A stretch of DNA of 64,000 nt from Parcubacteria group bacterium (GTDB taxonomy: Bacteria > Patescibacteriota > Minisyncoccia > UBA6257), in NCBI GenBank assembly GCA_012798235.1, contig JAAZNP010000004.1, forward strand, positions 2,171 through 66,170. The letters run 5' to 3'. The notes below the pieces were generated by a model. The model ran no database searches and had not been told where the DNA came from. It worked only from the letters and a program-made list of their open reading frames with translations. Shown here in pieces: positions 9,266 to 59,671 of the stretch. Every line of letters begins with the position of its first letter. Position 1 is the stretch's first letter. A program made the position numbers and the translations under genes.

Positions 9266-9517
9266 ATGAATAATAATTTAATTAAAATTTATTCTTCGCC
9301 AGATTGTCCTTATTGCTATACCGTAAAAGATTATCTTAATCAAAAAGGGATTAATTTTGAAGAAATTGATTTATATGAAGAGCCAGAGAAAAGAAAAGAA
9401 ATGGAAGAAATTTCTCATCAAAAGAACATTCCAGTTTTAGTCATTAATAATGAAGTAGTTGTGGGTTGGAATAAAGAAAAAATTGATGAACTTTTAAAGA
9501 AATATGGATTTATATGA
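9266..9517 (+). CDS. Glutaredoxin/NrdH-like protein (CPYC)
   Basis: The sequence YSSPDCPYCYTVKDYL is present. 83 aa. Confidence 0.8.
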   Translation: MNNNLIKIYSSPDCPYCYTVKDYLNQKGINFEEIDLYEEPEKRKEMEEISHQKNIPVLVINNEVVVGWNKEKIDELLKKYGFI

Positions 9518-10424
9518 TCTAATTATTATTGGCGCTGGACCAGCAGGAATTACTGCTGGTATTTATGCTGCGCGCAAAAAGATTAAAACTCTTTTAATTA
9601 CCAAAGATTTTACTGGCCAAGTTGGTTTATCTTGGAAAATAGAAAATTATCCTGGTTTTAAACAAATTAGTGGTCTAAAGTTAATGGAAAATTTGAAAAA
9701 TCATTTAAAAGAATACGAAATTGAAATCAAAAATTTTGAAGAAGTAAAACAAATTGTAAAAGATAATAATTACTTTCAAACTATTACTAATGAAAATAAA
9801 TATTTAGCAAGAACATTAATTATTGCCACTGGTGCTTTACCTAAAAAATTAGCGATAAAAAACGAAAAAAAATTTCTTGGCCACGGCTTATCTTATTGTT
9901 TAACTTGCGATGAAAAAGCTTTTGAAGGAAAAATTGTGGCAGTGATTGGCGGTGGTAATGCTGGCGCCGAAGCTGCTCTAGAATTACAAAAATTTTGTCC
10001 CAAAATTTATCTTTTAGAATATTTAGAAAATTTAACTGGTGATGAAATTTTGAAAGAAGAAGTGTTAAATAGTCCCTCGATTACAGTTATTACTAATGCT
10101 CAAGTATTAAGTTTTGAGGGTGAGAAAGAATTAGAAAAAATTATTTTTAAAGACAGAAAAACAAATAAAGAAAAAGAAATTTTAATTAATGGCTGCTTTG
10201 TTGAAATTGGAACAAAATCAAATACCGAATTTTTAGAAGGGTTAGTAGAATTAAATGAGAAAAAAGAAATCATCGTTGATCCTAAAACAATGGTAACCTC
10301 AGTAAAAGGAATTTTTGCTGCTGGCGATGTTGGTAATTTTAATCAAAAACAAATTATTCTTGCCTGTGGTCAGGGCGCTTTAGCAGCTTTATCAGCTTAT
10401 CAATATTTAAAAACATTAAAATAG
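9504..10424 (+). CDS. trxB: Thioredoxin-disulfide reductase
   Basis: The FAD motif GAGPAG, the redox-active CLTCD (CxxC) and the NADPH-binding motif GGGNAG are all present. It overlaps grx by 14 nt. Confidence 0.85.
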   Translation: MDLYDLIIIGAGPAGITAGIYAARKKIKTLLITKDFTGQVGLSWKIENYPGFKQISGLKLMENLKNHLKEYEIEIKNFEEVKQIVKDNNYFQTITNENKYLARTLIIATGALPKKLAIKNEKKFLGHGLSYCLTCDEKAFEGKIVAVIGGGNAGAEAALELQKFCPKIYLLEYLENLTGDEILKEEVLNSPSITVITNAQVLSFEGEKELEKIIFKDRKTNKEKEILINGCFVEIGTKSNTEFLEGLVELNEKKEIIVDPKTMVTSVKGIFAAGDVGNFNQKQIILACGQGALAALSAYQYLKTLK

Positions 10425-10428
10425 AAGT

Positions 10429-12024
10429 ATGATTAATAAAAACAAAATTTTGGGCTTATTTTTAGTAATTACTTTAATTCTTTCGTTTTTCTCTTTTTAT
10501 TCATCTAGTAGAGCTCAAGAAAAAGAAGTTAATTTGTATTTTTTCTGGGGTCAAGGTTGTCCTCATTGTGCTCACGAGAAGCCATTTCTTGAATCATTAA
10601 AATCAAAATATCCTCAGTTAAAAATTTATGATTTTGAAGTTTGGTATAACCAGAAAAACAGAGATTTATTAATTGAGGTAGGAAAAAAACTAAAAATAGA
10701 TATTAGTGGCGTTCCTTTAACAATTATAAATGATCAGCCGATTATCGGTTATTATGATGATACTACCACCGGCAAACAAATCGAAGATTTAATAATTAAA
10801 TGTCTAAATAGCTCTTGTAAGGATTCGGTTAGAGAAATTGTTTTTAAAAATTTAACCACCACTACTAAAAAAGAAACTCCTTCAACCACTACTACCACTA
10901 CTATCTCTCAAAAAGAAATTAAAGCCTACCTTTTTTGGGCCGAAGGTTGTCCCTTATGCTCTGCTGAAAAGACTTTTTTAAATCAACTTAAAGAAGAATA
11001 TTCGAATTTAAATATTACCTATTTGAATGTTTCTAAAAATAACAATAATGATATTTTAAAACAAACAGTTGAAGAACTGAATATTGAAAATCCCAGTTTG
11101 CCATTATTAATAATCGGAGAAAAAACAATAATTGGGTGGCGCGATCAAGATACATCCGGCAAAGCAATACGCGATGCCATTAATTGTTATTTAGAAAATG
11201 AATGTCCTGACTTAGTTGGTCAAGTTTTAACTCGCTTTAATACTTTTGGTCAATTTACCAAAGATAAACCTTTGCCAGAAAAAATCAAAATTCCTTTAAT
11301 TGGAGACATAGAAACTAAAAATCTTTCCTTGCCGGCTTTAGCAATTATTATTGGTGGACTTGATGGTTTTAATCCTTGTGCGATGTGGGTGCTGATTTTC
11401 TTAATTACCTTACTTTTGAAAATGCAAGATCGCAAAAGAATGTGGATTTTAGGCTCTACTTTTATCGCTACCTCATCTGCTGTTTATTTTCTTTTTATGA
11501 ATGCTTGGCTTAATTTAATCCTCTGTTTAGGATTTATTTTTTGGATTAGGTTAGTGGTTGGGATCGTAGCTTTAGGTAGCGGTGTTTATAATTTGAGAGA
11601 TTATTTCACTAATCAGGAAGCTGCTTGTAAAGTAACTGATGCGAAACAAAAGAAAACGACCATGGATAAAATGAAAGATATTGTCCATCGCCGATCTTTC
11701 TTATTAGCTTTAATTGGTATTATTCTTTTAGCTGCTTCTATAAATTTAATCGAATTAATTTGTTCTGCTGGTTTTCCGGTGATTTTCACCCAATTATTGG
11801 CCTTGAGTAATTTAGCTAAATGGCAATATTATCTTTATATGCTTTTATACATTTTTGTCTTTATGCTTGATGATTTGATTGTTTTTATTGGCGCGATGAT
11901 TACTTTAAGAGTTACGGGTATTACTAATAAATATTCTCGCTTGTCTCATTTAATTGGTGGCATTTTGATGCTTTTAATTGGTTTGCTTTTGATCTTTAAG
12001 CCAGAATTATTGATGTTTGGCTAA
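10429..12024 (+). CDS. DsbD/CcdA-like thiol:disulfide interchange membrane protein with two N-terminal extracytoplasmic thioredoxin-like domains (CPHC, CPLC)
   Basis: A signal/TM segment is followed by two Trx-like modules separated by a Thr-rich linker. Downstream is a CcdA-like TM domain (GGLDGFNPCAMWVL). Confidence 0.75.
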   Translation: MINKNKILGLFLVITLILSFFSFYSSSRAQEKEVNLYFFWGQGCPHCAHEKPFLESLKSKYPQLKIYDFEVWYNQKNRDLLIEVGKKLKIDISGVPLTIINDQPIIGYYDDTTTGKQIEDLIIKCLNSSCKDSVREIVFKNLTTTTKKETPSTTTTTTISQKEIKAYLFWAEGCPLCSAEKTFLNQLKEEYSNLNITYLNVSKNNNNDILKQTVEELNIENPSLPLLIIGEKTIIGWRDQDTSGKAIRDAINCYLENECPDLVGQVLTRFNTFGQFTKDKPLPEKIKIPLIGDIETKNLSLPALAIIIGGLDGFNPCAMWVLIFLITLLLKMQDRKRMWILGSTFIATSSAVYFLFMNAWLNLILCLGFIFWIRLVVGIVALGSGVYNLRDYFTNQEAACKVTDAKQKKTTMDKMKDIVHRRSFLLALIGIILLAASINLIELICSAGFPVIFTQLLALSNLAKWQYYLYMLLYIFVFMLDDLIVFIGAMITLRVTGITNKYSRLSHLIGGILMLLIGLLLIFKPELLMFG

Positions 12025-15851: not shown

Positions 15852-18078
15852 TTATCTTTTCATGCGATGACGTAAATATTCTAAGCGATATTCTCTGATT
15901 TTATTTTCTAAGCGGGCTAAAGCTAAACGGCCCTGAGGATTGAATTTTAAGTAATACCAAAGTAAGAAAGCTAAACCAATACTTAAGATAAGAGAAATGA
16001 TTAAGGAATCCTCAGCACCAGTAGCCACAGTAGCCGCGCCAGCTACTAAACCGTAAGTAATAGTAGCGCTATCACTAACTGTAGTTATATTAGAAGCAGT
16101 TGCTTGAGCAGTATTAGTATAGGTTAAATAGGTACCGGGGTTATTACTTATAGCTTGGAAAGTAATAGTTTTAGAAGCACCGCGGTTAATAGTACCTAAA
16201 GATAATCCAGTAGTGGTAATAGTATCAGCTTGAACTACACCATCAATTTTAGTAGTTCCAGCTCGATAACTAAAAACTGAAGGCAAGGGATCAGTTATAA
16301 CTACATTATAAAGATCATTAGCGCTACCAGCAGTAATTGTTAAGTAAAATTCAATAACATCGCCTTGAGCTACTCTAATATTTTTAGAATAGGAACGATC
16401 ACCAAAAGAAAGATTTCTGCCTAATTTAGTAAAACTCATGGAAGTTGTTGGTGCAGCTACATAAATAGTAACTGTTTGACTAACCTGGCCGCTATTACCA
16501 TAACAAGTTAAAGTATAGGTGGTTTGGGTATTAGGAGTAGTATTCTCATAACCAGTAATTGATTTCGTACCACTCCAACCATTAGAAGCCACACAATAAT
16601 TAGTATTATTAGAAGTCCAACGAAGATAAGTGCTTTCTCCTTGAGTTAAAGAATATTTATCAGCCCAGAAAGATAAAGTAGGAGTAACTGATTGGAGGCT
16701 AACATTGAAAGTCTCAGTATCACTGGTTGTATTATTGGAACAAGTTAAAGTAAAAGTGGAAGGATTTTGCAAATTGTAAATTGTTCTAGAACCATAAGTA
16801 GCTTGGCTACCAGTCCAGTAAGAATTACTGGGATTAGTAGAAGCAGTACAATAATTACAATTTGTAGTATTCCAAGTTAGAATAATATTATCGCCATTAG
16901 TAATACTATAATCATTGGAAATAAAATTAGTAATCACGCATTGGCTTGGAGTCACACAATTGTTTTGACAACTGGTTAATGAGGTATATTCTCCATTAGA
17001 AGCAACTACACATTGATAATTAGAGTTACAAGTATAGCGAGTAATAGGTGGTTGGCAAGCACTAGTACATTCGCTATAGGTGCCATAAGTACCATTAGTA
17101 GCTTGTGAACAAGTCCAGGTATTAGTATTGCAGTTGTATCTAACTGGAGCCACACAATTGTTTTGACAACTGGTTAATGAGGTATATTCTCCATTAGAAG
17201 CAACTACACATTGATAATTAGAGTTACAAGTATAGCGAGTAATAGGTGGTTGCACTGTTACAGTTAAATTTTTTGTATCAGAATTATTAGTACCACTACA
17301 AGTTAAAGAAAAGTAAGTAGTATTGGTTAAATTGTAAATTGTTTTAGAGCCATAAGTAGCTTGACTGCCATTCCAATAGGAATTACTAGGAGAAGCTGAA
17401 GCACTGCAATAATTACAATCGGAAGTATTCCAATTCAAGGTAGTAGAATCTCCGGAATTAACATTAGTATTACTAGCAGAGAAATTAGTAATTACGCATT
17501 GGCTTGGAGATGGAATAGTAAAAGCGCGAGTATTAGATACACCTACCGTAGGAGTAGAATAAGCATCAACTCGCGTATTGGATTTAGCATAAACCCAGAT
17601 TTTGCAGTACTGATAATTAGCTACTGAGGCAGGAATTGACCATTGGATTGATTGCGCATTGGTTTGTTTATTTAATGGAATATTATTAGCAATAATATAA
17701 TCATCATTATATAAACTAGTAGTATCACCGCAACCATATTTAACTAAAAAATAATCAAGAGGAGGGTTAAAAGAGGTAATGTAATAATTCCATTGAATAG
17801 TAATGGTTTTATTAGGAGTAATATAATTGCCTTCGATCGGTAAATAGCGGACGCTTTCGCTGGTATCATTATCATTAAACCCATTAACATTGATATTATT
17901 AATAAATACTCCACAATTATTGTAATTATTGGGACTTTTGGCAGGACAGGCACTAGGAATATTACCATAATCAGCAATGGTTAAAGCACGAGCAGGAAGG
18001 GTATTGACGAAAGAAAAGCCAGCCACAAAGATAATGGCTAAAACGCTTAATTGAAGAGATTTTTTCATATTTTTGTTC
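15852..18078 (-). CDS. Large secreted Cys-rich surface protein with internal repeats and a C-terminal TM anchor. The start is set at MNKNMKK, followed by a signal peptide.
   Basis: ~740 aa, Thr/Asn/Ser/Cys-rich. The 34-aa unit PPITRYTCNSNYQCVVASNGEYTSLTSCQNNCV is repeated identically. Two further repeats, CVITNF...WNT..CNYC.AS.NPSNSYW.GSQATYGS.TIYNL, are present. The C-terminus has a hydrophobic segment plus a basic tail. Confidence 0.6.
16953..17252. repeat. Perfect 102-bp intragenic direct repeat (copies at 16953-17054 and 17151-17252, spaced 198 bp apart and in frame)
   Basis: Identical nucleotide blocks cacacaattgttttgacaactggttaatgagg...gtaataggtggttg are read directly from the sequence. 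Confidence 0.85.
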
Positions 18079-18275
18079 ATATTTTTATTTTTGTAGAACA
18101 AAGTAATTATAGCATAATTATAATAAAATGTCAATACTAGTAGCATCTTTCTACCAGATTTTGATCTTGCTTTAACTTTATCACAAAAATGGTATCTTGT
18201 CAAATATTTTAAAATATGCTATAATATAGGAAGATTATGGAAAAAGTAAGGAATTAAGTATATTATTAAATAAGT

Positions 18276-19289
18276 ATGAAAATAAAGACTTTTATCAAAA
18301 ATTTATTATGGCCCAGTAAAGAAAATAATTTCCAGCCTCGAATTTTAAATGATCGAGCGATTACTCTATTTATTTTACTATTTTTATTATCAAAAGTTTT
18401 CTTTAGTTTTGAATTGATTTTGATTCAACAATCAAAGTTATTTGCCGAATTAAATGCTCAAAAAATTATTGCTTTAACTAACGAGGTAAGACAACAATAT
18501 GGTTTAACTCCTCTAAAGGAGAATACTTTATTAGATTTGGCAGCTCAGCAAAAAGCGCAGGATATGACTATTAATAATTATTTTGCTCACTTTAGCCCCA
18601 CTGGCGTTTCGCCCTGGTACTGGTTTCAGAAAGCGGGTTATAATTATTATTATGCCGGAGAGAATTTAGCCATGAATTTTTTGGATAGCGAAGAAGTAGT
18701 GAGAGCTTGGCTTAATTCACCCAGCCATCGAGATAATATTTTAAACCAGCATTATCAAGAAATCGGAATTGCTATTTTACCAGCTAATGCTAATAGCCAA
18801 GGAATAGCTAATAAACCCATTGTTGTTCAATTATTTGGTAGTCCTCAAGTAGCAAAAGCTGCAACTCCTGCTATCCCGTCAGTGCCTACTACCAAACAAG
18901 CAACAACTACTAGTAAACCAGCGTCTAAAAATCAAGAAATCTTAGGTGAAGAAGAAAAAGCTACTACTTCTACTACTATTATCACCATAACTACTATTCC
19001 TCCGACTACTATTCCTCCGGCTACTATTCCTCCGACTACTTTAGAAACTCCCATTGCAGCTAATTTAGGCTCTGATACTCGTACTAAAATTAATACCACG
19101 AATGTGATTATTGCCTTGAGTTTGATTGCTATGGGCTCAATTGTTATTTTGGGCATTATAAAACAGCAACGAGCTATTCCCTTTGGCTATTCGGAAATTG
19201 TTTTAAGGAGCGCTATTGTTATTTTTATTGGTGCTGCTTTTTGGATTTTTCATTTAGAGAAATTCATTGGGCAATTAATGATTTCGTAA
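18276..19289 (+). CDS. CAP/SCP (PR-1-like) domain secreted protein with a (TTIPP)n linker and a C-terminal TM anchor
   Basis: YFAHFSPTG...AGENLAMNF...WLNSPSHRDNIL..YQEIGIA matches CAP-domain motifs. A TTIPPTTIPPATIPPTT repeat is also present. Confidence 0.7.
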   Translation: MKIKTFIKNLLWPSKENNFQPRILNDRAITLFILLFLLSKVFFSFELILIQQSKLFAELNAQKIIALTNEVRQQYGLTPLKENTLLDLAAQQKAQDMTINNYFAHFSPTGVSPWYWFQKAGYNYYYAGENLAMNFLDSEEVVRAWLNSPSHRDNILNQHYQEIGIAILPANANSQGIANKPIVVQLFGSPQVAKAATPAIPSVPTTKQATTTSKPASKNQEILGEEEKATTSTTIITITTIPPTTIPPATIPPTTLETPIAANLGSDTRTKINTTNVIIALSLIAMGSIVILGIIKQQRAIPFGYSEIVLRSAIVIFIGAAFWIFHLEKFIGQLMIS

Positions 19290-19298
19290 TATCTTTTC

Positions 19299-20021
19299 AT
19301 GATTTCAAGAAAACTTTTCTGGCGTGATCTAAAGTTATTTTTGAGAATTTTTTTAATTCTTTTTGCTGTGATTTTTTTTATTTTTGATGGCACGGCTTTT
19401 GGGGCTATTGCAACTTATAAAATTAGTCATTTTTTTAATTTAGCTAAAACCAAAATTTTCGAGCCTCCTAATTTAAACATTTTTTCAGAAAGTGCCACCA
19501 CAACACTTTCTCAAGGCAGCCCCAATACTACTACTACTAAAACCACTACTTCTTTACCCACCCCTCCTTCAGAATTACAAAATACCAATTTAATTGTTTT
19601 GCCAAAATTCAATATTAAGGCACCCATCTGGGTTGTTAATACTATTGATTTAAAATTAATTTATAAAAAATTAAAAGAAGGGGTTGTTTTATATCCGGGT
19701 ACGGCCATTCCAGGTCAAGGATATTCCATTATTATTGGCCATTCTTCGCAATATCCCTGGCAGCCCGGTCGTTATAAATCAGTTTTTTCTTTGCTATCAC
19801 AATTAGAAGCTGGTGATAAGATTTATATTTATTGGGATCAAAAACCATTAGTTTTTGAGGTTCAAGAAACAAAAATTTTCTTACCCTTTCCTAAAGGTAA
19901 CGAAACTACGGAGACAGTTTTCCCTCCTGAAGAGCAGCCGATTTTAATTTTACAAAGTTGCTGGCCTGTAGGCGTAGCTTATAAAAGAGTAGCTGTGAAG
20001 ACTGTATTAATTAACCAGTAA
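19299..20021 (+). CDS. Sortase family transpeptidase
   Basis: N-terminal TM. The conserved His (IIIGHSS), the TLxTC-like active-site Cys (ILILQSCWP) and a downstream Arg are all present. Confidence 0.7.
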   Translation: MISRKLFWRDLKLFLRIFLILFAVIFFIFDGTAFGAIATYKISHFFNLAKTKIFEPPNLNIFSESATTTLSQGSPNTTTTKTTTSLPTPPSELQNTNLIVLPKFNIKAPIWVVNTIDLKLIYKKLKEGVVLYPGTAIPGQGYSIIIGHSSQYPWQPGRYKSVFSLLSQLEAGDKIYIYWDQKPLVFEVQETKIFLPFPKGNETTETVFPPEEQPILILQSCWPVGVAYKRVAVKTVLINQ

Positions 20022-24802: not shown

Positions 24803-24834
24803 AAAAACTCTCTCTTAAATAAGAGAGAGTTTTA
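24803..24834. terminator. Bidirectional rho-independent terminator
   Basis: aaaaaactctctcttaaataagagagagtttta. Confidence 0.75.
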
Positions 24835-24851: not shown

Positions 24852-25205
24852 TTAGAAGAATTTGCATTGCGCCCCCTTACCAAATAAGACACAGATCAAG
24901 TACACCAATCCTCGAGCTAATAAAGCAATGCCAACGCCAATTAAAGCATAAATGAGCATATTTAATGCACTCTTTACTTTTTCTTCATTGCCAGCAGAAG
25001 TTACATAAGTAAAACCAGCAGCAATCAGCATAATTACAGCAATTAAAAGCACGATACCAAAAAACCAATTGGTAATAGTTTTAATAACACCATTTGTTCC
25101 CCAAGGATCGATTTCAATCCAAGGCGCTTCCGGCGGTTGGGCTAAGGCTAATAGTGCTCCAGAAAGAAGCGTAATTAATGAAATAGTTAAAATTAGTTTT
25201 TTCAT
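24852..25205 (-). CDS. Pilin-like two-helix protein, paralog 1 (TrbC/VirB2-like core; short C-terminal tail)
   Basis: A signal peptide precedes the conserved core WFFGIVLLIAVIMLIAAGFTYVTSAGNEEKVKSA..LIYALIGVGIALLARG, shared with the three upstream paralogs. Confidence 0.55.
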   Translation of the reverse strand: MKKLILTISLITLLSGALLALAQPPEAPWIEIDPWGTNGVIKTITNWFFGIVLLIAVIMLIAAGFTYVTSAGNEEKVKSALNMLIYALIGVGIALLARGLVYLICVLFGKGAQCKFF

Positions 25206-25296
25206 AATGATAATTTTATTTTAAGCTATCGACCTTATTGACTCTTTATTAATTATATAGATTTAATCAGTAAAAAGTCAAATTATTTTAGTTATT

Positions 25297-25857
25297 TTAA
25301 ACAAAATTAAAATATTTAGTTCCGCCACCTCCACCAGCGCCGCAGCATAATTCTCTACAAGTTATAGATAAAGAATCGCACCAATCTTCTAAAGACGGAG
25401 AACCGCTAGTGCAATCGCAAATTTTACTCAAATTAGGTATATTTTCTTGTGCTTGCTCGACAATGACATCGACGATATTTTGATTTGCTTCATTATAATT
25501 ATAAGAAGAGGTGCTGGTAGTTTTTCCTTGAAGAAAATTTTGAACAAACGTCGGGATACCTCGAGCTAATAAAGCGATAGCCACACCAATTAAAGCAAAA
25601 ATAATAGTTTTGGAAGCAATTCTAATTTTATCTTCATTTCCACCGGCAGTAATATAAGTAAAACCAGCATAAATAAGCATAATGACAGCTATAGTCAAAG
25701 CAATGCCAAAAAACCAATTTAAGGCATTTTCTAAAATAGTCCAAATACTAATATTACTCGTATCGGGAATTTTAGGCATAGTTGCTGGAGGCGCTGCCCA
25801 AGTCACAGGAAAAGAAATAAAGAGAAAAATAAAGATCAAGAAAATAATTTGTTTCAT
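25297..25857 (-). CDS. Pilin-like two-helix protein, paralog 2, with a Cys/Gly-rich C-terminal tail
   Basis: Same core (WFFGIALTIAVIMLIYAGFTYITAGGNEDKIR). The tail reads CDCTSGSPSLEDWCDSLSITCRELCCGAGGGGG. Confidence 0.55.
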   Translation of the reverse strand: MKQIIFLIFIFLFISFPVTWAAPPATMPKIPDTSNISIWTILENALNWFFGIALTIAVIMLIYAGFTYITAGGNEDKIRIASKTIIFALIGVAIALLARGIPTFVQNFLQGKTTSTSSYNYNEANQNIVDVIVEQAQENIPNLSKICDCTSGSPSLEDWCDSLSITCRELCCGAGGGGGTKYFNFV

Positions 25858-25875
25858 AATATTAACATTAATAAT

Positions 25876-26355
25876 TTATGGGGAAATACATTGACCTCCG
25901 CAGCAAACTAAACCATTATCACATGGGCCAAGAATTTGGTCAGAGCACTCCGATTCACTACAACAATTGCCACCGCTATTAGCGCATGTCTCAGAATTAC
26001 TGGTATTCTTATTAATTCCTAAAAATTCTTTGATTAAAGCCGGGACTGCTCGGGCAATTAAAACAATGGCAAAACCAATAATTGCCCAAATCAATACCTT
26101 TTGCGCGGTTTTCACTTTTTCTTCATTGCCGCCAGCAGTAATATACAAAAATCCAGCATAAACAATAATAATAGGAGTGACAACAATAGCGACTCCAATT
26201 AAGAAATTAGTAATTTTTTCAATTAAGGTATAAATATCAGACGTTTCGCCTAAAGGATTAGGGATGGTTATTTCAGTGGTTTTATCTTCAGCAAAAGTTA
26301 TTGCAGTTAAACTAATGAGAAATATTAAAACCAAGATAAATATTTTTTGTTTCAT
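25876..26355 (-). CDS. Pilin-like two-helix protein, paralog 3, with a Cys-rich tail
   Basis: Core IIVYAGFLYITAGGNEEKVKTA. The tail reads CANSGGNCCSESECSDQILGPCDNGLVCCGGQC. Confidence 0.55.
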   Translation of the reverse strand: MKQKIFILVLIFLISLTAITFAEDKTTEITIPNPLGETSDIYTLIEKITNFLIGVAIVVTPIIIVYAGFLYITAGGNEEKVKTAQKVLIWAIIGFAIVLIARAVPALIKEFLGINKNTSNSETCANSGGNCCSESECSDQILGPCDNGLVCCGGQCISP

Positions 26356-26405
26356 AGATTTTTATTTTATTATTAGGCTCAATATTAAAAATTTATTATA
26401 CTAAG

Positions 26406-27302
26406 TTATTTACATGCATTTGGGTCGCTAGGATCGCATTCATTGGGGCAAGGTGGACATAAATGGTTATTACCCGTGGCACAGTAAGTTTCGAATTGTT
26501 TGGTGTTACAGTTTTTAACCGTTCTACACACAGTATAATTTTCACAATAAACCATGAGTTGTCCGCCTTCACACGGTCCGCCCTGGTTTGGGGGTTCTGG
26601 ATTTTTAGGTTCTGCTATAATCTTTGAAGGATCTGCTGGAACACAGCAAATAGTACCCTCGGGGCAATGTGTAATATTGGGATCAGTTAGAACCACTGTG
26701 GCAGCATCACAATTAGGATTCCAATTTAACCAACCTTCCATTTTTTCTACACAAGCATAACCCGTCATATCACCGCACCAATTTTCTGAAGAACCACCAT
26801 TGTAGTTACCTCCACCATTATAGTTACCACCACCATTATAGTTACCACCATCAATATTGTTACCACCATTACTATAACTTATCTTTTTTTCTTCACATTT
26901 TAATTGCCACCAAGTGCCAGTATAATCAGAACCACCAATCTGAGCCACTAGCCAAAAAACAGTATTTACAATTAACCACGAGCAAAGAATAATCGCTAAG
27001 CCAATTAAGGCACTAGCCAAACCTTTTTGACCAGCTTGAATATTAGCTTCATTGCCGCCAGAAAAAATCCAACGAAAGCCACCAACAATAGCAAAGATCA
27101 CGACAATCGTAAAAGCCAGAGTTAAGGCATAATGCAAAACATTTTCAAATAAAACTAATAAATCACAGGTAGTACAGGGATCTTCATCAGGGCCACCACA
27201 AGATACTAATCCTTTCGCCCCAGTTGTGAACGGAAGCAAGAAAATGAACAAGAAAAAAATTACAATTAATTTTTTCATTGATTTTTTGTTTGTTGATACC
27301 AA
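26406..27302 (-). CDS. Pilin-like two-helix protein, paralog 4, with a long (GGNYN)n and Cys-rich tail
   Basis: Divergent core VVIFAIVGGFRWIFSGGNEANIQAG. The tail has an NGGGNYNGGGNYNGG repeat and ~20 Cys. It overlaps the upstream gene by 28 nt. Confidence 0.5.
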   Translation of the reverse strand: MVSTNKKSMKKLIVIFFLFIFLLPFTTGAKGLVSCGGPDEDPCTTCDLLVLFENVLHYALTLAFTIVVIFAIVGGFRWIFSGGNEANIQAGQKGLASALIGLAIILCSWLIVNTVFWLVAQIGGSDYTGTWWQLKCEEKKISYSNGGNNIDGGNYNGGGNYNGGGNYNGGSSENWCGDMTGYACVEKMEGWLNWNPNCDAATVVLTDPNITHCPEGTICCVPADPSKIIAEPKNPEPPNQGGPCEGGQLMVYCENYTVCRTVKNCNTKQFETYCATGNNHLCPPCPNECDPSDPNACK

Positions 27303-28582
27303 TTTAATTCAATACTTTTGGCTGCATTAATAGCAGCTTCTTTGGCTTTTATATTACCAAGAATTACATCATTCACCATTTTACTAAAAATATTATCAAT
27401 TTGATGATTATCAAATTGATACCAACTGCGGCTGGTTAAAATTTGACTAGCAAAAATACCAACTTGGGGATCGTTCATGGCTTGAGTGACTAGATCTAAT
27501 CTAGCAGGAGGATTTTTGGTTTGAGCAAAATAATATTGAGCAATCCCTTTACTGGCTAAAAATTTAAGAAATTGCCAAGCTTGCTGTTGATGAGAAGAAC
27601 GATTAAAGATAACGGCATTCATTGTTTTACCAAAATTTACTTGAGGAATTTCTCCGGAAATAAAAGGGAAAACAGTGACACCATATCTTAAATCAGGAGC
27701 GTAAGATTTAATTATTTGCCTTGCTTGACTATAACCAATCATCATTACTGTTTTTCCTTGAGAAAAAGCAATAATAGAGTTAGGAAAACTATTGCCCCAG
27801 GTGTAATAAGGAGATTTTATTTGAGCAAATTGGGAGTATTCATTTAAGGCTTCTTCGCCATAGAGTACAGAAGTAGTAGGTATTGGCTCATCAAAAAGCA
27901 CTTCCTTCTCATTTTTATTAACCATTTTACATCCCAATTGCATCATAATTTCTGATAAAATATCATTACCCCACGTGATGTTATCGTAGGTTCCTAAAGC
28001 AATAGCCGCTCGCGTTATTTGGCCCGTGGCATTAGTTTTTCTGAGTTTGGGAACTAATTTTAAAATTTCATACCAATTATCAGGTGGCAAAGGAATTTTA
28101 TAATAATCAAAAATATCCTTATTGTAATATAAAGCTAAAGTGTCAATGGATAAAGGAATACCTAAGAGGGAATTATTATCAATTAATTCATTTTGAACAA
28201 TTTGAGGATAAGTTTCTTGGATTGAACGCAGATTATAATCTTTATCTTTAGTTAAATCTAAAGCTGCTATTTTATCCTGGTAACGCGGTAACCAAGAACC
28301 AGGAATAATAAAGATATCCGGACCTTGGTTTTTAGCAAAAGCTGCTAATAATTCATTTTCATAACTGCCGGCTTCTTTTTGCGTGTATTTAATTTGGATG
28401 TTTTTATATTGTTGTCGATAAGAATTGATAATGCTATCGAAAACTTGGGGGCTATCATTAACGCCCCAAATTTCTAAAGTAATTACTTGGCGCGATGGCC
28501 TTTTAAGAATAGTGCTTAAAATGAAGAAAAGAATAATGAAGCCTAAAACCGAAAAGAGAATTATTTTTTGACGTGAAGACAT
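27275..28582 (-). CDS. Extracellular solute-binding protein family 1-like lipoprotein or TM-anchored protein. It is an orphan: no ABC permease is adjacent.
   Basis: An N-terminal TM is followed by a SBP_bac_1-like fold, recognised by eye (MalE-type periplasmic binding protein features). Confidence 0.5.
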   Translation of the reverse strand: MSSRQKIILFSVLGFIILFFILSTILKRPSRQVITLEIWGVNDSPQVFDSIINSYRQQYKNIQIKYTQKEAGSYENELLAAFAKNQGPDIFIIPGSWLPRYQDKIAALDLTKDKDYNLRSIQETYPQIVQNELIDNNSLLGIPLSIDTLALYYNKDIFDYYKIPLPPDNWYEILKLVPKLRKTNATGQITRAAIALGTYDNITWGNDILSEIMMQLGCKMVNKNEKEVLFDEPIPTTSVLYGEEALNEYSQFAQIKSPYYTWGNSFPNSIIAFSQGKTVMMIGYSQARQIIKSYAPDLRYGVTVFPFISGEIPQVNFGKTMNAVIFNRSSHQQQAWQFLKFLASKGIAQYYFAQTKNPPARLDLVTQAMNDPQVGIFASQILTSRSWYQFDNHQIDNIFSKMVNDVILGNIKAKEAAINAAKSIELNWYQQTKNQ

Positions 28583-28586
28583 ATTT

Positions 28587-29126
28587 TTAATTTTTTATTA
28601 GTTTCATTAAAAAGCCATAATGAGTAATTCCTAAAGCTAGCTCTCGTTCTACTGTAAAACCATATTTTTCTAACAACTCCAAAGCATCTTGTTTATTAAG
28701 TGGGAAAAGAAAATTTCTATTAGGTAATTTTTCTGGCTCCCATTCAATCAAAACCAATAACCCTTCTGGTTTTAAAATTCTTTTTGCTTCAGCAATAATT
28801 ATTTCTTTTTTGTCAATTTCAAAAAGGATATTAGCAATAAAAACTAAATCACAAGAATTATCAGGCAAACCGCTACCTTCCTCTTGCTCTAAATTAGCCC
28901 ATTTAGTTTCAATAATATTATTTAAACCCTCAAGTTTAGCTCGAAAAGATAATGCTTCTAACGAAGGTTTCCAGATATCTAAAGCAATAATTTTCCCTGA
29001 AGGTTTTAATCTTTTTGCCATTTCCAAAGAAAAATATCCATTGCCGCAACCAAAATCAGCAATAACCATGCCTTCTTTGAGAGGTAATAAATTCGTAATA
29101 TCTGGAGGATTAAGAAAGGGCGCCAT
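28587..29126 (-). CDS. Class I SAM-dependent methyltransferase
   Basis: Motif I is VIADFGCGNGYFS, with an acidic residue after beta2 (ALDI). Confidence 0.75.
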   Translation of the reverse strand: MAPFLNPPDITNLLPLKEGMVIADFGCGNGYFSLEMAKRLKPSGKIIALDIWKPSLEALSFRAKLEGLNNIIETKWANLEQEEGSGLPDNSCDLVFIANILFEIDKKEIIIAEAKRILKPEGLLVLIEWEPEKLPNRNFLFPLNKQDALELLEKYGFTVERELALGITHYGFLMKLIKN

Positions 29127-29150: not shown

Positions 29151-31613
29151 TTAAATTAAAGAAAAACCGGCAATTTTATCATCATCAGTTAATTTCATAA
29201 TTCGCACTCCTTGAGTGGTACGTCTCAAAATAGGAACACTCTTTAACTGCGCTTTAATGATTTGTGCTTTTTGGGAAATCGCAATAAGGGTTTCTTCATT
29301 TTGAGTTAAAGCAGCTTTAATAATAAGTCCAGTTTTGTTGGTAATTTTAGCAGTTTTAATGCCACTGCCCCCTCTTTTTTGTTGACGATACTCATTCAGT
29401 TTTGTTCTTTTGCCAAATCCTTTTTCGCTCATCACTAAAACTTGAGGATTAACTTTAATAATTTCTGGGGTGATATTAATTAAACTAACTACGCGATCAT
29501 TGTTTTTTAATTTAATCCCCTTAACGCCACTGGCTGTACGACCCAAGGCTCTAATTTCTTTTTCCGAAAAACGGATAGCTTGTCCTTGTTCAGAAATCAA
29601 AAGAATTTCATCATTACCCGTCGAAAAAGTTGCGCCAATGACATTATCATTATTAGTCAGTTTGATAGCCACAATGCCACCCTTGCGAATGTTGTCATAT
29701 TCTTTCAGGGCTGTTTTTTTAATTAATCCTTGCTGGGTAGCTAAAATTAAAAAACGATAATTAGTTTCTTTGAGATGAGGTGGCAAATTAAGTAAAACAA
29801 TTACTTTTTCCTGCTCTCTCAAATTCAAATAATTTTGAATCAATTTACCCCTACTAGTGCGTGATCCTTCAGCAATTTCAAAAGCCGGAATTTGGAAAAG
29901 ATACCCTTTATTGGTAAAGAACAGAATTTTATCACGATTGTCAGCAGCTAAAAGATGGCTAATAGCATCTTCCTCGTTTTTCGTTTCATAGCCAATAACT
30001 CCCTTGCCGCCTCTTTTCTGGGCCTTAAGCGTTTCCGGAGACATTCTTTTAATATAGCCAGTTTGTGAGAGGGTAATGAGGATATCTTTGGCGGGAATAA
30101 GTTCTTCATCTTTGATTTCACCAGGCAAATAGGGTTCAATTTTAGTTTTACGTTCATCACCGTATTTCTCTTTTAAATAATTAATCTCATCTTTAATTAT
30201 TTTTAAAATTCTTTTTGGTTGCTTGAGAATTATTTCGTATTCGCTAGCTAATTTTTGTTTTTCTTTAAGTTCGTCTTCGACTTTTTGTTTCTCTAATTTT
30301 GCCAAATTTGATAATTTCATTTCTAGAATGGCATTAGCTTGGATTTCACTAAATTTATATTTGGCCATTAATTTTTGCTGGGCGTTATCTCGATTTTCCG
30401 AAGATTTAATCAATTTAATAATTTCATCAATATGATTTAGGGCTTGAGCTAATCCTTCAAGAATATGGATTCTCTCTTTAGCCTTTTTGAGTAAATATTC
30501 GGTGCGTCTTTTGATAACTTCTTTACGATGTTCTAAATATTCTTCCAGGATATTTTTTAAGGATAAAACTTTAGGCTGTAATCCATTTTCGACTAAAGCT
30601 AGAATATTCACATGAAAAGCCTTTTCCATCTCAGTATATTTAAAGAGCAGGTTTAGAATACGATTCGGTAGAGCATTTTGATGGAGATCAATAGCAATAC
30701 GTAATCCTTCTTTATCAGATTCATCCCTTAAATCTTTAATCCCTTCAATTTTATTTTCTTCTACCAAGGCAGCAATTTTAGTAATTAAATCAGCTTTATT
30801 CACTTGATAGGGAATTTCAGTAACAATAATTTTTTTATGCTTATTGTCATCAATGATTTCTGTTTTAGCGCGACAAATAATAGAACCTTTGCCTGTCGCA
30901 TAAGCTTCTAAAATACTTTCTTTGCCGTAAATAATACCACCCGTAGGGAAATCAGGCCCCTTAATAAAGTTCATTAGTTCTTCAGTGGAGGCATCTGGTT
31001 TATCAATTAAAAAATTAATGGCATTAGCAATTTCAGTTAAATTATGGGGTGGAATATTAGTGGCCATACCCACGGCAATACCCATGGCGCCATTTAAAAT
31101 CAATTGTGGCAATTTTGCTGGTAAATATTTTGGTTCTTGTCTGGTACCATCATAGTTAGGCATAAAATCAACAGTTTCTTTGTCTAAATCCTCAAGCATT
31201 TCTTGAGCAATATTAGTTAAACGACATTCAGTATAACGCATGGCACCCGGAGGGTCGCCATCGATAGAACCAAAATTACCTTGACCTTGAATCAAGGGAT
31301 ATCTTAAAGAAAAATCCTGAGCCATTCTGACTAAGGCATCATAAACAGCAATATCGCCATGGGGATGGAATTTACCCAACGTTTCTCCGACAACCGTCGC
31401 TGATTTTCTCGTTTTACTATTAGCCGTTAAACCTAATTCGTTCATGGCATAGAGGATTCTTCTTTGCACTGGTTTTAAACCATCGCGAGCATCAGGCAAA
31501 GCGCGAGCAATAATCACGGACATTGCATAATCTAAATAAGATTCCCGTAATTCTTCGGTAATTTCTCGAGGCTCAATATTTTTTTTGAATTCTTCCTTAT
31601 TAATCTCAGGCAT
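29151..31613 (-). CDS. gyrA: DNA gyrase subunit A
   Basis: [22 protein letters not shown] with the active-site Tyr region, and a C-terminal beta-pinwheel. 820 aa. Confidence 0.85.
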
Positions 31614-39017: not shown

Positions 39018-41129
39018 ATGAATAAAAACTCACTTTTGCTTTTCCCTGCTTTAATGGTGGGTAGTGTCCTTTTACTTGTTACTGCTTTCTCTTTTTTAAC
39101 AGCAAACCCTTCAACATTAACAGCTTCGATAAATCCACCACCTTCTCCATCTTGTCCTTTTGAAGAAGGATTTACTCCAGCTAATGTTTCTTTAACTTCG
39201 CCCTTAAATTTAAGACAAGAAGCCCTTTTATTAAAGGCTTTTTTAGTTAGAGTAGAAAATTGTCCTGATAGTTATTCTTTAAATACTTGTTTAGGTCTTT
39301 TCCAGGAATATTGCGTGGAGCAAGGTAAATGTTCTAACCATTATTCTTTTGAGAAACCCGCTGTTATTACTTCTGAGATTAAAACATTACTATGCTCCGA
39401 ATGGACTAAACGCTACATTCTGCTTTACCAAAGTTCTAATTGGTCCTATTTACAAAATCTATTCGCCTCTAAAAATACCACAGTTTCTGATTGGTTAAAA
39501 ACTAATTACTCTCAATATGTAAGTTGGAAACAAAGCGTTACTTCTGGAGGTACAACTAGCACTGGAACTGGCACTGGAACTGGCACTGGAACTGGCACTG
39601 GAGGTGGTACTGGCACTGGAGGTGGTACTAGCACTGGAACTGGAGGCGGAGGTACCAGTGGAGGTAGCTCTGGTGGTACTATAACTACCTTTACTCCAGA
39701 GTCTTGTGCTGCTTATGGTCAAGCTATGGGAGTAGGAAATAGTTATTCTTGTCAGTTTGCAGAAAATTGTGGCAGCACTGAAGTTGCTGGCCCTTGCCCT
39801 ATTGGAGGAAAGATGTATTTTTGTTGTCTTACCCACCCTACTAAATGTTCGGATTTTGCCAAACAAGGTTATGCTTGTATTGCGCCTTATTCAGGAATTC
39901 GCGAAAATTGTCAACCTGGTACTCAATTACCAGGGGCGATGTGCAATGCAGAATATCAAGTGGTTTGCTGTAAACCTAAAACAGCAACTAAATGTGTGGC
40001 AGTTACTACTCTTAGTGGATACTGTGGAGGACAACCAAGATATAATAGGGATTGGAAATGTGAGCCAGCGGCACCAGGAGAAAATGATGATGGCTGTGAT
40101 GTAGATCTTATTAACCCTTGTCGAGTGAAATATGGTACTTATTCGGGAATTTGCGATCTCAATTATTGTGTACCTTCTTCTGAATGTAAGGGTTTAATTA
40201 ATAATTTATATGGTTGTCCTGATAGTACGAATGTCTGCTGTAATTATAAAACAGAAGAAATACCAGTAAATCAACTTAATATGTGCGATCATACTTGTGT
40301 TAAACCTTATCCCAATTCTCAATATCCAAATGATATTTGTGGTCCCAACTATTATCAAGTACTTGATAAGAAATGTAGTATAAGTGGTTATATTTGTTGC
40401 GCTCCTAAAAGTACAAATGCTGCTTGCGGTAATGGAATTTTAGAATCAGGCGAAGGATGTGATGATGGTAATACTATTAGTGGCGATGGATGCTCTGGTA
40501 CTTGCCAAATTGAAAATGTTACTCCTGTTTGTGGCAATGGAATTTTAGAGCAAGGCGAAGAATGTGATGATAATAATACTATTAGTGGTGATGGTTGTTC
40601 CTCTTCTTGCAAAAAAGAAAATAAGAGTTCTGCTATTTGCGGAAATGGAAAAGTAGAAGCAGGTGAAGATTGCGACGGTTCAGTTAATAAAACTTGTGCC
40701 GATTACGGATTCAATAGCGGTACGGTTAAGTGCACTAGTTGTAAATACGATATTTCAAATTGTCACAATACGCAGACTACCTGTTGGTATTTAGCATGTG
40801 CAAATGGTATCTGCGTAAGCAAAGAAACTACGGATTGCCCCCATGCTGATGAAGGTGGTTGTACCGGATTAGGTAGTTTATGTGGCCAAGATTATTGTAT
40901 TCAGCATGCTTCTCAAGGTTATGGTTGTAGTAATAATTGCCAACCAGATAGTGAAATCAATGCTATTGGGTGCGAACCACCGCTAAAGTGTTGTAAACCT
41001 GTGGCTTCATGTACCCCTAATTGCGACGATAAAGAATGCGGCGATGATGGTTGTGGTGGTTCTTGTGGTAGTTGTCCCCGCAGTACTCCTAATTGTATAA
41101 ACGGAAGATGCTCAGCGGCTTTTCAATAA
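39018..41129 (+). CDS. Large secreted cysteine-rich protein with a (TG)n low-complexity linker and three Myxococcus-type cysteine-rich repeats
   Basis: A signal peptide is present. The TGTGTGTGTGTGGGTGTGGG linker is encoded by the (ACTGGAACTGGC)n DNA repeat at 39561-39603. Three CGNGxxExGExCDDGNTISGDGCSxxC units span 40425-40650. About 90 Cys in total. Confidence 0.65.
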   Translation: MNKNSLLLFPALMVGSVLLLVTAFSFLTANPSTLTASINPPPSPSCPFEEGFTPANVSLTSPLNLRQEALLLKAFLVRVENCPDSYSLNTCLGLFQEYCVEQGKCSNHYSFEKPAVITSEIKTLLCSEWTKRYILLYQSSNWSYLQNLFASKNTTVSDWLKTNYSQYVSWKQSVTSGGTTSTGTGTGTGTGTGTGGGTGTGGGTSTGTGGGGTSGGSSGGTITTFTPESCAAYGQAMGVGNSYSCQFAENCGSTEVAGPCPIGGKMYFCCLTHPTKCSDFAKQGYACIAPYSGIRENCQPGTQLPGAMCNAEYQVVCCKPKTATKCVAVTTLSGYCGGQPRYNRDWKCEPAAPGENDDGCDVDLINPCRVKYGTYSGICDLNYCVPSSECKGLINNLYGCPDSTNVCCNYKTEEIPVNQLNMCDHTCVKPYPNSQYPNDICGPNYYQVLDKKCSISGYICCAPKSTNAACGNGILESGEGCDDGNTISGDGCSGTCQIENVTPVCGNGILEQGEECDDNNTISGDGCSSSCKKENKSSAICGNGKVEAGEDCDGSVNKTCADYGFNSGTVKCTSCKYDISNCHNTQTTCWYLACANGICVSKETTDCPHADEGGCTGLGSLCGQDYCIQHASQGYGCSNNCQPDSEINAIGCEPPLKCCKPVASCTPNCDDKECGDDGCGGSCGSCPRSTPNCINGRCSAAFQ

Positions 41130-57931: not shown

Positions 57932-59671
57932 ATGCGGATAAAACACATTTTTCATAGTTTTTGGGGGGGATTAATTATCGGCATTATTATTTTAGTAATT
58001 GGTTTTTTTGTTTGGAGCTTAATTAATAGGGGTGGAGTGAATTTTTCTATTTTAGGGCCAGATAATATTGCTTCTGGCAATATAAGTAATTTTACATTTA
58101 AATACGTAAATAATTCACGGGTGGCTCTTGAGGATTGTTCATTAGATATTACTTTGCCCGAAGGAGTTGTGTTTACCGAGAATCCTCTAAAAAAGACAAT
58201 GAGCATTTATTTGGGTGAAGTTTTAGCACAAACATCAGGAGAAAAAACTCTGAGTTTAATGATTACTGGCGAACCTCAAACTGCTAAAATTATCGAGGCT
58301 ACTTTTAATTATCGGCCCAAAGGCATTAGCTCTTCTTTTGCTAAAAAAGATAGTAAAACTGTTTTATTGACTGGTTCCATTTTTAATTTAAATATTAATC
58401 TTCCTCAAAAAGTATTTATTGGTCAAGATTTTCCTCTTGAAATAAATTGGTCTAATTTGACTAATCAATCATTTGCTAATGCGGAATTAAGAGCTGAGTG
58501 GCCAAGTGGCTTTTCTTTAATTAGTGCTAATCCCGATGTTACTAAAGAGCAGGGTACTAATAATACTTGGCTCATTGGTAATATTGTTCCTACTGGTCAA
58601 GGAGCTATCAAAGTGCAAAGTTCTTTAAGCGGACAAGATGGCGAAACCAAGAGAATAGCTCTTACTTTAGGCATTAATCAAAACGGTTCTTTTTTGCCTT
58701 TAGTGTCTGCCCAAGGTTTTGTAACTTTATTATCTAATCCTTTGAAATTATCAGTTTTTGTTAATGGTGATACAGATTTTAACGCTGATTTAGGTGATAA
58801 ATTGGATTTTACAGTGAATTATGAAAATAATTATTCTGCCAGTCTTAGGGATTTAGTGCTAACAGTTCAATTCAAAGGTGATGCTTTTGATTTTTCAACT
58901 TTAAAAGCGCCAAATGCTGTTTTCTCTTCACGTTTACAAACTCTAACTTGGACGGGTAGTAGAGTGAGCAGTCTTTATGTTTTAAATCCCGGTGCTAAAG
59001 GAACATTGAATTTTTCTGTAAAATTAAAATCTGATTGGCCGATGCAAAGTTTAGCTCAAAAAAATATTGTTTTGGAAATTGATAGCAACATCAAAAGTTC
59101 TAGTGTCCCCGAAGAATTAGGATATCAGGCCTTACCTCAAGCCTCTACTATTAATACTGTTAAATTAAATTCTTTCTGCCTTTTGGATATTGGTAGTTAT
59201 TTTAGAGATCCACCGGCTTTAATTGTGAATACAGGCAAATTACCATTAAAAGTGGATCAACCAATTGATTTCACTATTCATTGGAAAATAGTTAATACCT
59301 ATAATGCTATTAATAATGTAACTGTTGAGACAACCTTGCCTTTATGGGCAGAATGGACCAATCAAGTAGCTGGTAATTATGGGTCCAGCGCTCCTTTATA
59401 CGATGCTCATACGAGAAAAATTAGCTGGACAATTCCTGTGGTACCAGCAGGTTCGGGTACTTTAATTACGCCCTACGAAGCAGTTTTTCAAATAAAAGTT
59501 ACTCCTTTATCTTCGCAAATTAATCAAAGCATTGAATTAACTAATGAAACCACTTTTACTGCTACTGATTCCTTTACTTTAAAAAATATTAATCTTGTTT
59601 ATCCTAAAGTATTATCTGATAAATTAACAGATACGACTGTTATACCTAATGAGGGCATTGTTAGGCCGTAA
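57932..59671 (+). CDS. Large TM-anchored extracellular protein (beta-rich, DUF11-like repeat character)
   Basis: An N-terminal TM is followed by ~550 aa rich in Asn/Thr/Ser. No catalytic motifs are seen. Confidence 0.35.
   Translation: MRIKHIFHSFWGGLIIGIIILVIGFFVWSLINRGGVNFSILGPDNIASGNISNFTFKYVNNSRVALEDCSLDITLPEGVVFTENPLKKTMSIYLGEVLAQTSGEKTLSLMITGEPQTAKIIEATFNYRPKGISSSFAKKDSKTVLLTGSIFNLNINLPQKVFIGQDFPLEINWSNLTNQSFANAELRAEWPSGFSLISANPDVTKEQGTNNTWLIGNIVPTGQGAIKVQSSLSGQDGETKRIALTLGINQNGSFLPLVSAQGFVTLLSNPLKLSVFVNGDTDFNADLGDKLDFTVNYENNYSASLRDLVLTVQFKGDAFDFSTLKAPNAVFSSRLQTLTWTGSRVSSLYVLNPGAKGTLNFSVKLKSDWPMQSLAQKNIVLEIDSNIKSSSVPEELGYQALPQASTINTVKLNSFCLLDIGSYFRDPPALIVNTGKLPLKVDQPIDFTIHWKIVNTYNAINNVTVETTLPLWAEWTNQVAGNYGSSAPLYDAHTRKISWTIPVVPAGSGTLITPYEAVFQIKVTPLSSQINQSIELTNETTFTATDSFTLKNINLVYPKVLSDKLTDTTVIPNEGIVRP

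Follow-up and report, generated by a model that had tools for sequence, protein, structure and literature searches.

In a 64,000-nt stretch of a Parcubacteria group bacterium (assembly GCA_012798235.1, contig JAAZNP010000004.1), hereafter called the window, four tandem genes on the minus strand encode proteins that by family membership are VirB2-like (PF18895) pilins of type IV secretion systems (T4SSs), and the array is led by a gene for a membrane-anchored, sugar-type solute-binding protein (SBP). At the level of gene order, this SBP–pilin coupling is tight across the phylum Patescibacteria. We consider it probable, with some reserve, that the module consists of a surface-anchored oligosaccharide-type SBP translationally coupled to four VirB2-like pilins that would be assembled by a T4SS encoded elsewhere, the SBP serving as a recognition or capture component. 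The array itself is a fresh member of a published class of tandem, divergent VirB2-like arrays, but the SBP coupling, the mosaic Cys-rich tails and the conserved gyrA–methyltransferase neighbourhood seem to be undescribed; no description of an SBP linked to pilin arrays was found in the literature searched, where the SBP and the tails go unmentioned.

The module and its immediate flanks are arranged as follows, in the order of transcription:

29151–31613, minus strand: gyrA, which clusters with PF00521/PF03989 open reading frames (ORFs) of syntenic loci
28587–29126, minus strand: small, cytoplasmic class-I S-adenosylmethionine-dependent methyltransferase (Pfam Methyltransf_31/11/25)
27275–28582, minus strand: membrane-anchored MalE-type (family 1) SBP of 435 amino acids (aa), the conserved lead gene of the array (PF01547, E = 7e-33)
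26406–27278, minus strand: pilin 1, 290 aa, of the SBP-proximal subtype (PF18895, 28.9 bits)
26793–26868, no strand assigned: tandem repeat, 4.2 copies of an 18-nt unit, coding for the (GGNYN)n linker in pilin 1 (Tandem Repeats Finder)
25876–26355, minus strand: pilin 2, 159 aa, with a 48-aa tail holding 8 Cys (PF18895, 37.1 bits)
25297–25857, minus strand: pilin 3, 186 aa, with a Ser/Thr/Asn-rich linker and a 6-Cys tail ending in a Gly run (PF18895, 43.8 bits)
25252–25281, minus strand: promoter-like site (11 of 12 consensus positions matched) within the 91 nt that separate pilins 3 and 4
24852–25205, minus strand: pilin 4, 117 aa, a minimal pilin with a C-terminal C-x-F-F (PF18895, 44.5 bits; TrbC, 27.2 bits)
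24804–24833, minus strand: terminator-like hairpin with a 13-bp stem followed by the T-run TTTTTTATTA, at the end of the array

The five minus-strand genes that a first-pass annotation of the window had reported, one SBP-like and four paralogs, were all recovered as ORFs at their coordinates. Its 28-nt overlap between the SBP and pilin 1 did not hold up, because it came from taking the longest ORF (TTG at 27302): the candidate start codon at 27278, an ATG, shares the sequence ATGA with the stop codon of the SBP and gives a 290-aa product, and gene calls in syntenic relatives use the equivalent start, so that the ATG at 27278, rather than the TTG, is most likely the predicted start of pilin 1. 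The same annotation had proposed a five-gene operon, of which the co-directional run of genes stands. The transcription unit is nonetheless probably longer than five genes and probably includes gyrA and the methyltransferase, since both genes share the strand of the SBP and the spacing is tight, with 4 nt from the end of the methyltransferase to the SBP start and 24 nt from the end of gyrA to the methyltransferase start. The promoter-like site before pilin 4 is weak evidence, because promoter-like sites in the region are no more numerous than in shuffled sequence. The four-ORF array is judged not to be a product of chance, because four adjacent ORFs each pass a curated hidden Markov model (HMM) threshold and the array recurs in syntenic relatives.

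Assignment of the paralogs to TrbC/VirB2-type pilins, as proposed in the first-pass annotation, was borne out by Pfam, in which all four exceed the curated gathering threshold of 26.6 bits of T4SS_pilin (PF18895), a family of VirB2-like pilins of Patescibacteria. The broader TrbC/VirB2 family (PF04956) gave its best score to pilin 4, just under the cut-off of 27.9 bits, and 21.5 bits to pilin 3, with no match for pilins 1 and 2 in the Pfam scan; the NCBIfam model ‘pilin-like conjugal transfer protein’ also scored just below its cut-off, and one source (NCBI) names a pilin 1 homolog ‘pilin’. Each paralog has the previously noted signal peptide followed by a two-helix core with a short polar loop. 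The leaders are K-rich with A-x-A-like cleavage sites, as read from the sequences themselves, and the hairpin is seen in the AlphaFold model of pilin 1, which places helices at residues 2–18, 37–71 and 77–114 and a loop at 72–76, with a predicted local distance difference test (pLDDT) score of about 80 for the hairpin. Core identity among the four paralogs is 27–54%, within the published range for such arrays. Sequence searches of the PDB returned no relative of the pilin cores and no pilin, and the fold evidence for pilin identity is non-specific.

Other families were considered for the cores. A holin or phage origin was rejected because none of the paralogs has a PHROGs match at E values up to 0.01, and no Pfam family other than the pilins reaches its threshold, which leaves holins, bacteriocin-immunity proteins and other rivals without support; an unrelated, well-characterized identity of this kind would have undercut the first-pass annotation. 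Type IV pilins of the PilA type were likewise rejected: these are expected to have a class III signal peptide (G|F/M-T-L-x-E) and a single N-terminal hydrophobic helix, whereas the leaders here are Sec-type, the hydrophobic helices are two and there is no Pfam match to type IV pili.

The link between SBP and pilins was followed across the phylum by scanning one genome per species with an SBP profile, which returned 240 relatives; the best 80 were kept and cover many Patescibacteria classes, the closest species representatives being metagenome-assembled genomes of Minisyncoccia and Paceibacterota. Pilins were recognized with a core HMM built from the window and two relatives and were counted when on the same strand and at most 500 nt downstream of the SBP. 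By this measure a pilin lies directly downstream of the SBP in 79 of 83 loci from many classes, at a median gap of about 8 nt and frequently with a 4-nt overlap, in arrays of 1–9 pilins; two of the four loci without a downstream pilin are cut by contig ends. A separate metagenome scan gave the same picture, in that all untruncated SBP relatives above 200 bits have pilins downstream, whereas none of about 50 generic SBP control loci (below 140 bits; 21–27% identity) does. ABC transporter permeases, sought with an HMM whose seed proteins were confirmed as BPD_transp_1 by Pfam, were found at none of 116 SBP-family loci (1.59 Mb) but at 15 of 53 control loci, and the only ABC transporter genes in the window are an ABC-2 exporter pair.

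The junction is kept where the surroundings change. A distant relative on a complete 1.03-Mb genome has different flanks, yet its SBP is followed by six pilins; the flanks are NTP-transferase...YebC/RuvC in loci L004 and L169 as against gyrA...HSP20 here; and distant array members searched for from the pilin side again lie behind an SBP (L169/L170). This conservation strengthens the first-pass proposal that the paralogs are co-transcribed with the binding protein. Of 82 SBP loci, 39 have a co-directional gyrA some 3 kb ahead of the SBP, 49 have a methyltransferase homolog, in most cases as the next gene upstream of the SBP or within a split array, and 30 have an MBL-fold protein near the module; HSP20 and PrsW recur downstream. 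We also observed a lone 333-aa PF18895 pilin with no SBP, beside a Peptidase_M23 protein (L171 6232–14552, and L172), that adjoins a YadA-head protein and an apparent integrated inovirus-like element (Zot, RepSA/REP).

The SBP matches the Pfam families SBP_bac_1 (PF01547) and SBP_bac_8. Its AlphaFold model (pLDDT 94) has an N-terminal transmembrane helix at residues 3–25 and a two-lobe fold, and Foldseek aligned it with oligosaccharide SBPs (5ci5, 4qsd and 5ysd) and with MalE proteins at template modelling (TM) scores of 0.7–0.8; the structures matched include Atu4361 with sucrose or maltotriose and a sophoro-oligosaccharide SBP, and a PDB profile search returned 4qrz (E = 7e-37). A lipoprotein-like N-terminus with [GAS]-C is present in about 50 of 80 orthologs, the others having a transmembrane anchor or no early Cys, and with either anchor type the SBP is predicted to be tethered outside the membrane. 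Among 54 orthologs, numerous W, Y, D, N and R positions do not vary. The protein is soluble, confidently predicted and suited to ligand screening, and so offers an experimental handle on, and a clue to, the role of the T4SS or pilus.

The pilins differ most in their C-terminal tails, which are 180, 48, 78 and 10 aa long with 16, 8, 6 and 1 Cys in pilins 1 to 4 and do not align to one another. The first-pass annotation was right about this divergence and about the Gly–Asn repeat (GGNYN)n, which the 18-nt tandem repeat encodes; where it gave 13 to about 180 aa and up to about 20 Cys, the tails measure 10–180 aa and hold at most 16 Cys, 20 being the total for the whole of pilin 1. From its N-terminus, pilin 1 consists of the signal peptide, a 3-Cys segment (LVSCGG..PC..C), the helical hairpin, a Gly/Asn linker and a 16-Cys tail of two modules. 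In the AlphaFold model the linker (residues 119–163) is disordered (pLDDT below 50) and the tail (164–290) is a folded, β-rich Cys domain (pLDDT 73–88). First pilins form a subtype: the N-terminal Cys motif (LVPCGG..PC..C) occurs in 84% of them as against 16% of other pilins, with one further Cys directly after helix 2. Long tails are the exception, at least 40 aa in 32 of 315 pilins (about 10%; median tail length 8 aa), and those long tails are rich in Gly, Ser, Thr, Asn and Pro and hold a median of 6 Cys, the count being even in 79% of those with any Cys. The largest extensions of family members reach 446 aa.

Tails and cores vary separately. For the 27 pilin 1 homologs compared, Spearman coefficients of 0.09 and 0.17 show no correlation of core identity with tail-module identity, and module A exists in two variants that pair with several variants of module B. 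In syntenic relatives, tail identity follows neither SBP nor core identity: relatives with an SBP identity of 72–76% have a pilin tail identity of 37–38%, whereas more distant ones (SBP identity 58–64%) have a higher tail identity of 49–57%. Array composition shifts as well, with protein lengths of 290/159/186/117 aa here, 294/111/193/117 in L003, 172/158/116 in L087 and 159/158/186/122 in L005, and ortholog protein identity is 55–76%. The tail of pilin 2 is kept in the L085 and L005 orthologs (71–73% identity), the corresponding position is tailless in L003, and L087 has a different, type-3-like tail on a type-2 core; pilin 3 has 15 homologs with a nearly invariant core and a divergent tail in which 2 Cys are invariant. 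The tail of pilin 1 contains no Pfam domain, and a search of 1.84 billion representative proteins brought up just 3 relatives, each a pilin 1 ortholog or a fragment of one. Sequence comparison thus describes the tails as mosaic, fast-changing, Cys-rich and decoupled from the cores. The first-pass picture of a conserved core with diversifying tails holds between paralogs and between species; at strain level, the sole independent assembly of the same strain (L001) is 100% identical, the 18-nt repeat included, so that no hypervariation was seen.

Further variation was noted in the family. The last, shortest pilins of the clade (L087, L096, L098, L100 and L106) share the C-x-F-F end, in the forms GAQCKFF, GGQCNFF, GGCKFF, ETCKFF and TDCSFF. 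In L030, the SBP is followed by a pilin (10445–11656) whose Cys-rich extension, about 300 aa long, is N-terminal and not C-terminal; extensions can therefore be added at either extracellular end. A 305-aa protein (P0019) contains three consecutive pilin cores, each with its own GGNE-like loop, and looks like a fused array.

In the reading that we favour, the pilins would enter the membrane by the Sec route, leaving both termini on the outside and the short GGNE-K loop on the cytoplasmic side, and a VirB4-type T4SS encoded elsewhere would extract and polymerize them into a pilus or a short conduit at the site of host contact. In solved conjugative pili (VirB2/TraA), the pilin termini face outward and the loop faces the lumen or the cytoplasm; by analogy, the C-terminal extensions may be disulfide-bonded knobs held on flexible Gly/Asn or Ser/Thr linkers at the outer surface, and several paralogs would provide several surfaces. 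The SBP would descend from an ABC-importer protein that was taken over to serve the pilins alone; at the base of the structure it would most likely recognize a glycan of the host envelope or capture a sugar-containing molecule derived from the host.

Several observations weigh against this reading. VirB4, VirB6, a coupling protein and a prepilin peptidase were absent from the window in Pfam scans of its large ORFs, in line with the first-pass annotation, which had listed no T4SS ATPase or prepilin peptidase; and a screen of the surroundings of the module (±10 kb) in 80 species, which covered ORF clusters that recur and those large ORFs that carry a Walker A motif, gave no VirB4 candidate and returned only AAA, PilB-type T2SSE and RecG proteins. 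The T4SS link is accordingly drawn from family homology and the literature, and the homology signal itself comes from a short hydrophobic domain. When the SBP was aligned to MalE with hhalign, only D147 (aligned to E111) was invariant among the contact residues checked. For the organism studied here, the filament, the SBP ligand and the expression of the module are predictions from the genes.

An alternative interpretation leaves the T4SS out: the two-helix ‘pilins’ would join the SBP at the membrane to make up an unconventional channel or receptor, dependent on that protein, for uptake or signalling, and would not be subunits of a T4SS pilus. The strict linkage to the SBP, the family loci in which no ABC permease was found, the lack of a nearby VirB4 candidate, the non-specific fold evidence and the position of the module inside a housekeeping block beside gyrA are what this interpretation would lead one to expect, but we consider it rather unlikely because the paralogs are homologous to PF18895 and TrbC proteins, because the six-gene PF18895 array of Southlakia epibionticum lies inside a T4SS cluster and is essential (PMC10633639, PMC12857230), and because such pilins occur near virB4 in 1,135 of 1,948 assemblies (about 58%, which makes proximity typical but not defining; PMC12102498). 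Channel subunits, moreover, are not expected to bear large disulfide-rich ectodomains. Those ectodomains could instead indicate that the pilin core has been reused as a non-polymerizing two-helix anchor that shows variable Cys-rich adhesins or lectins beside a glycan-binding SBP. Folded tail domains on disordered linkers, the mosaic and lineage-specific nature of the tails, and members whose extensions are very large or, as in L030, N-terminal all fit such a display function, yet about 90% of array pilins have tails shorter than 40 aa and so nothing to display, and the core, including its loop, is conserved far beyond the needs of an anchor; we hold this to be quite improbable.

It could also be argued that the SBP is an ordinary component of a sugar importer, with its permease and ATPase encoded elsewhere, and that its position reflects inherited gene order only. 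Its fold and Pfam family are indeed those of ordinary oligosaccharide SBPs, and much of the surrounding block (gyrA, the methyltransferase and the MBL-fold protein) is conserved along with it. Nevertheless, the SBP and the pilin stay adjacent even where every other neighbour has changed, across classes only a few nucleotides separate their stop and start codons when these do not overlap, and generic SBPs never have downstream pilins but have permeases nearby in more than a quarter of the control loci, which together make mere synteny very improbable. The assembly of the pilins by a T4SS encoded elsewhere, with the SBP as its recognition or capture component, is the reading that we retain. The observation reported in the first-pass annotation is confirmed and its interpretation is supported overall; the function that it suggested, a surface filament or adhesin display, is one that we infer.

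In the favoured reading, the module is chromosomal and vertically inherited in Patescibacteria. The window has about 33% G+C and is otherwise occupied by housekeeping genes (including those for ValRS, ArgRS, TrpRS, GyrA, PNPase, FtsH, RecG, NusA and IF-2), among which 18 tRNA genes are scattered over the 64 kb, and the cumulative GC skew climbs steadily along it. Other genes in the window encode secreted, surface or redox proteins. A cluster at 15852–20021, kept in L087, comprises a 783-aa DUF11/CLIPPER-repeat protein, a CAP (cysteine-rich secretory) domain protein and a sortase; a second DUF11 protein is encoded at 57932–59671; and a 703-aa putative surface protein with a DUF4215 Cys-rich repeat is encoded on the plus strand at 39018–41129. 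At 9504–12024, a thioredoxin reductase gene is followed by one for a 531-aa protein with thioredoxin, redoxin and glutaredoxin-like segments, and these genes could be relevant to the oxidative folding of Cys-rich secreted proteins.

Split arrays, in which the SBP and 1–2 pilins are separated by a gap from a further 4–6 pilins, were seen at L066 (13498–17107), L081 (13440–16395) and L169 (6326–8672). T4SS genes were considered as the content of these gaps and rejected, since what lies there is a RodZ-like helix-turn-helix protein, a methyltransferase, and GT2 and PMT_2-like glycosyltransferases; the latter two are membrane proteins encoded on the opposite strand. Their presence hints at O-glycosylation of the Ser/Thr/Asn-rich pilin linkers. 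A methyltransferase is also found at L081 12458–13009 and L169 5609–6319, and modification of the pilins by the co-travelling methyltransferase is possible, as far as gene neighbourhood can suggest.

More speculatively, the coupling might represent a phylum-wide ‘SBP-coupled pilus’, in which an oligosaccharide-binding SBP of the ABC-importer type has been permanently recruited as the lead gene of the array, a T4SS-derived surface conduit captures or recognizes host glycans, tail cassettes tune host specificity, and the methyltransferase and glycosyltransferases modify the pilins. We put this forward as a tentative proposal and think it, as a whole, doubtful. If true, it would be the first genomic hint that the essential T4SS of Patescibacteria serves uptake or host recognition and not export; the cargo and the direction of transport of Patescibacteria T4SSs and pilins are not established (PMC10633639, PMC12857230), and polymerization of a pilus by the T4SS lacks direct demonstration even for published arrays (PMC12857230). 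In the only Patescibacterium that is genetically tractable, epibiotic life requires the T4SS and its pilin array, and the coupling of an import-type binding protein to such arrays in many classes is a pointer to uptake or to the recognition of host glycans. The SBP–pilin link may thus help to explain how Patescibacteria exploit their hosts, with the mosaic Cys-rich tails as candidate determinants of host range. Were the coupling inherited gene order only, the locus would be an ordinary member of the published class.

That class is the closest comparison. Of 3,035 Patescibacteria assemblies, 2,417 (about 80%) have VirB4, and widespread VirB2-like pilins were detected in the phylum with PF18895 and PF04956, including 441 arrays of 2–11 tandem pilin genes in 383 assemblies, with identities of 25% on average and 54% at most (PMC12102498, Quiñonero-Coronel et al. 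2025); in Paceibacteria grown in culture, PF18895 pilins rank with the secreted proteins of highest expression (PMC10936435). With these surveyed arrays and that of S. epibionticum ML1, the array described here shares the PF18895 family, the tandem arrangement in the range of 2–11 genes, paralog identities of up to 54%, a chromosomal location in a monoderm episymbiont and the lack of a relaxase. It differs in being led by an SBP, in lying away from virB4 inside a gyrA–methyltransferase block, and in the long Cys-rich C-terminal extensions of three of its four members. Multi-copy virB2 genes of Bartonella and Anaplasma are similarly tandem, amplified and diverged, which has been read as a way of varying a host-facing surface (cited in PMC12102498). 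Those arrays, however, lie within a virB operon, vary the mature pilin itself rather than added tails, and have no SBP.

The TrbC/VirB2/TraA pilins (TrbC of RP4, VirB2 of Agrobacterium and TraA of F) have in common with the proteins studied here a signal peptide, two hydrophobic helices and a short polar, basic loop, consistent with the borderline PF04956 scores. Here, by contrast, there are no adjacent T4SS genes, no sign of cyclization or C-terminal trimming, and a monoderm host, and we know of no TrbC/VirB2/TraA pilin with a long disulfide-rich C-terminal domain. The SBP resembles MalE-type family-1 proteins such as Atu4361 (4qsd) and 5ysd in Pfam family, two-lobe fold and structural similarity, and its membrane or lipid anchor is as in Gram-positives, but members of the SBP subfamily described here have no permease or ATPase genes nearby in any of 116 loci, and their invariant neighbour is a pilin gene to which they are often translationally coupled. 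A possible functional parallel is offered by PrgZ and TraC, the pheromone-binding SBPs of enterococcal conjugative plasmids, which belong to the OppA family (family 5) and feed the Opp permease of the host. As is proposed for the module described here, an SBP-fold protein is encoded together with conjugation or T4SS components of the Gram-positive type and serves recognition without a dedicated transporter of its own; the SBP of the Patescibacteria arrays differs in being a family-1, sugar-type protein that sits beside the pilins.

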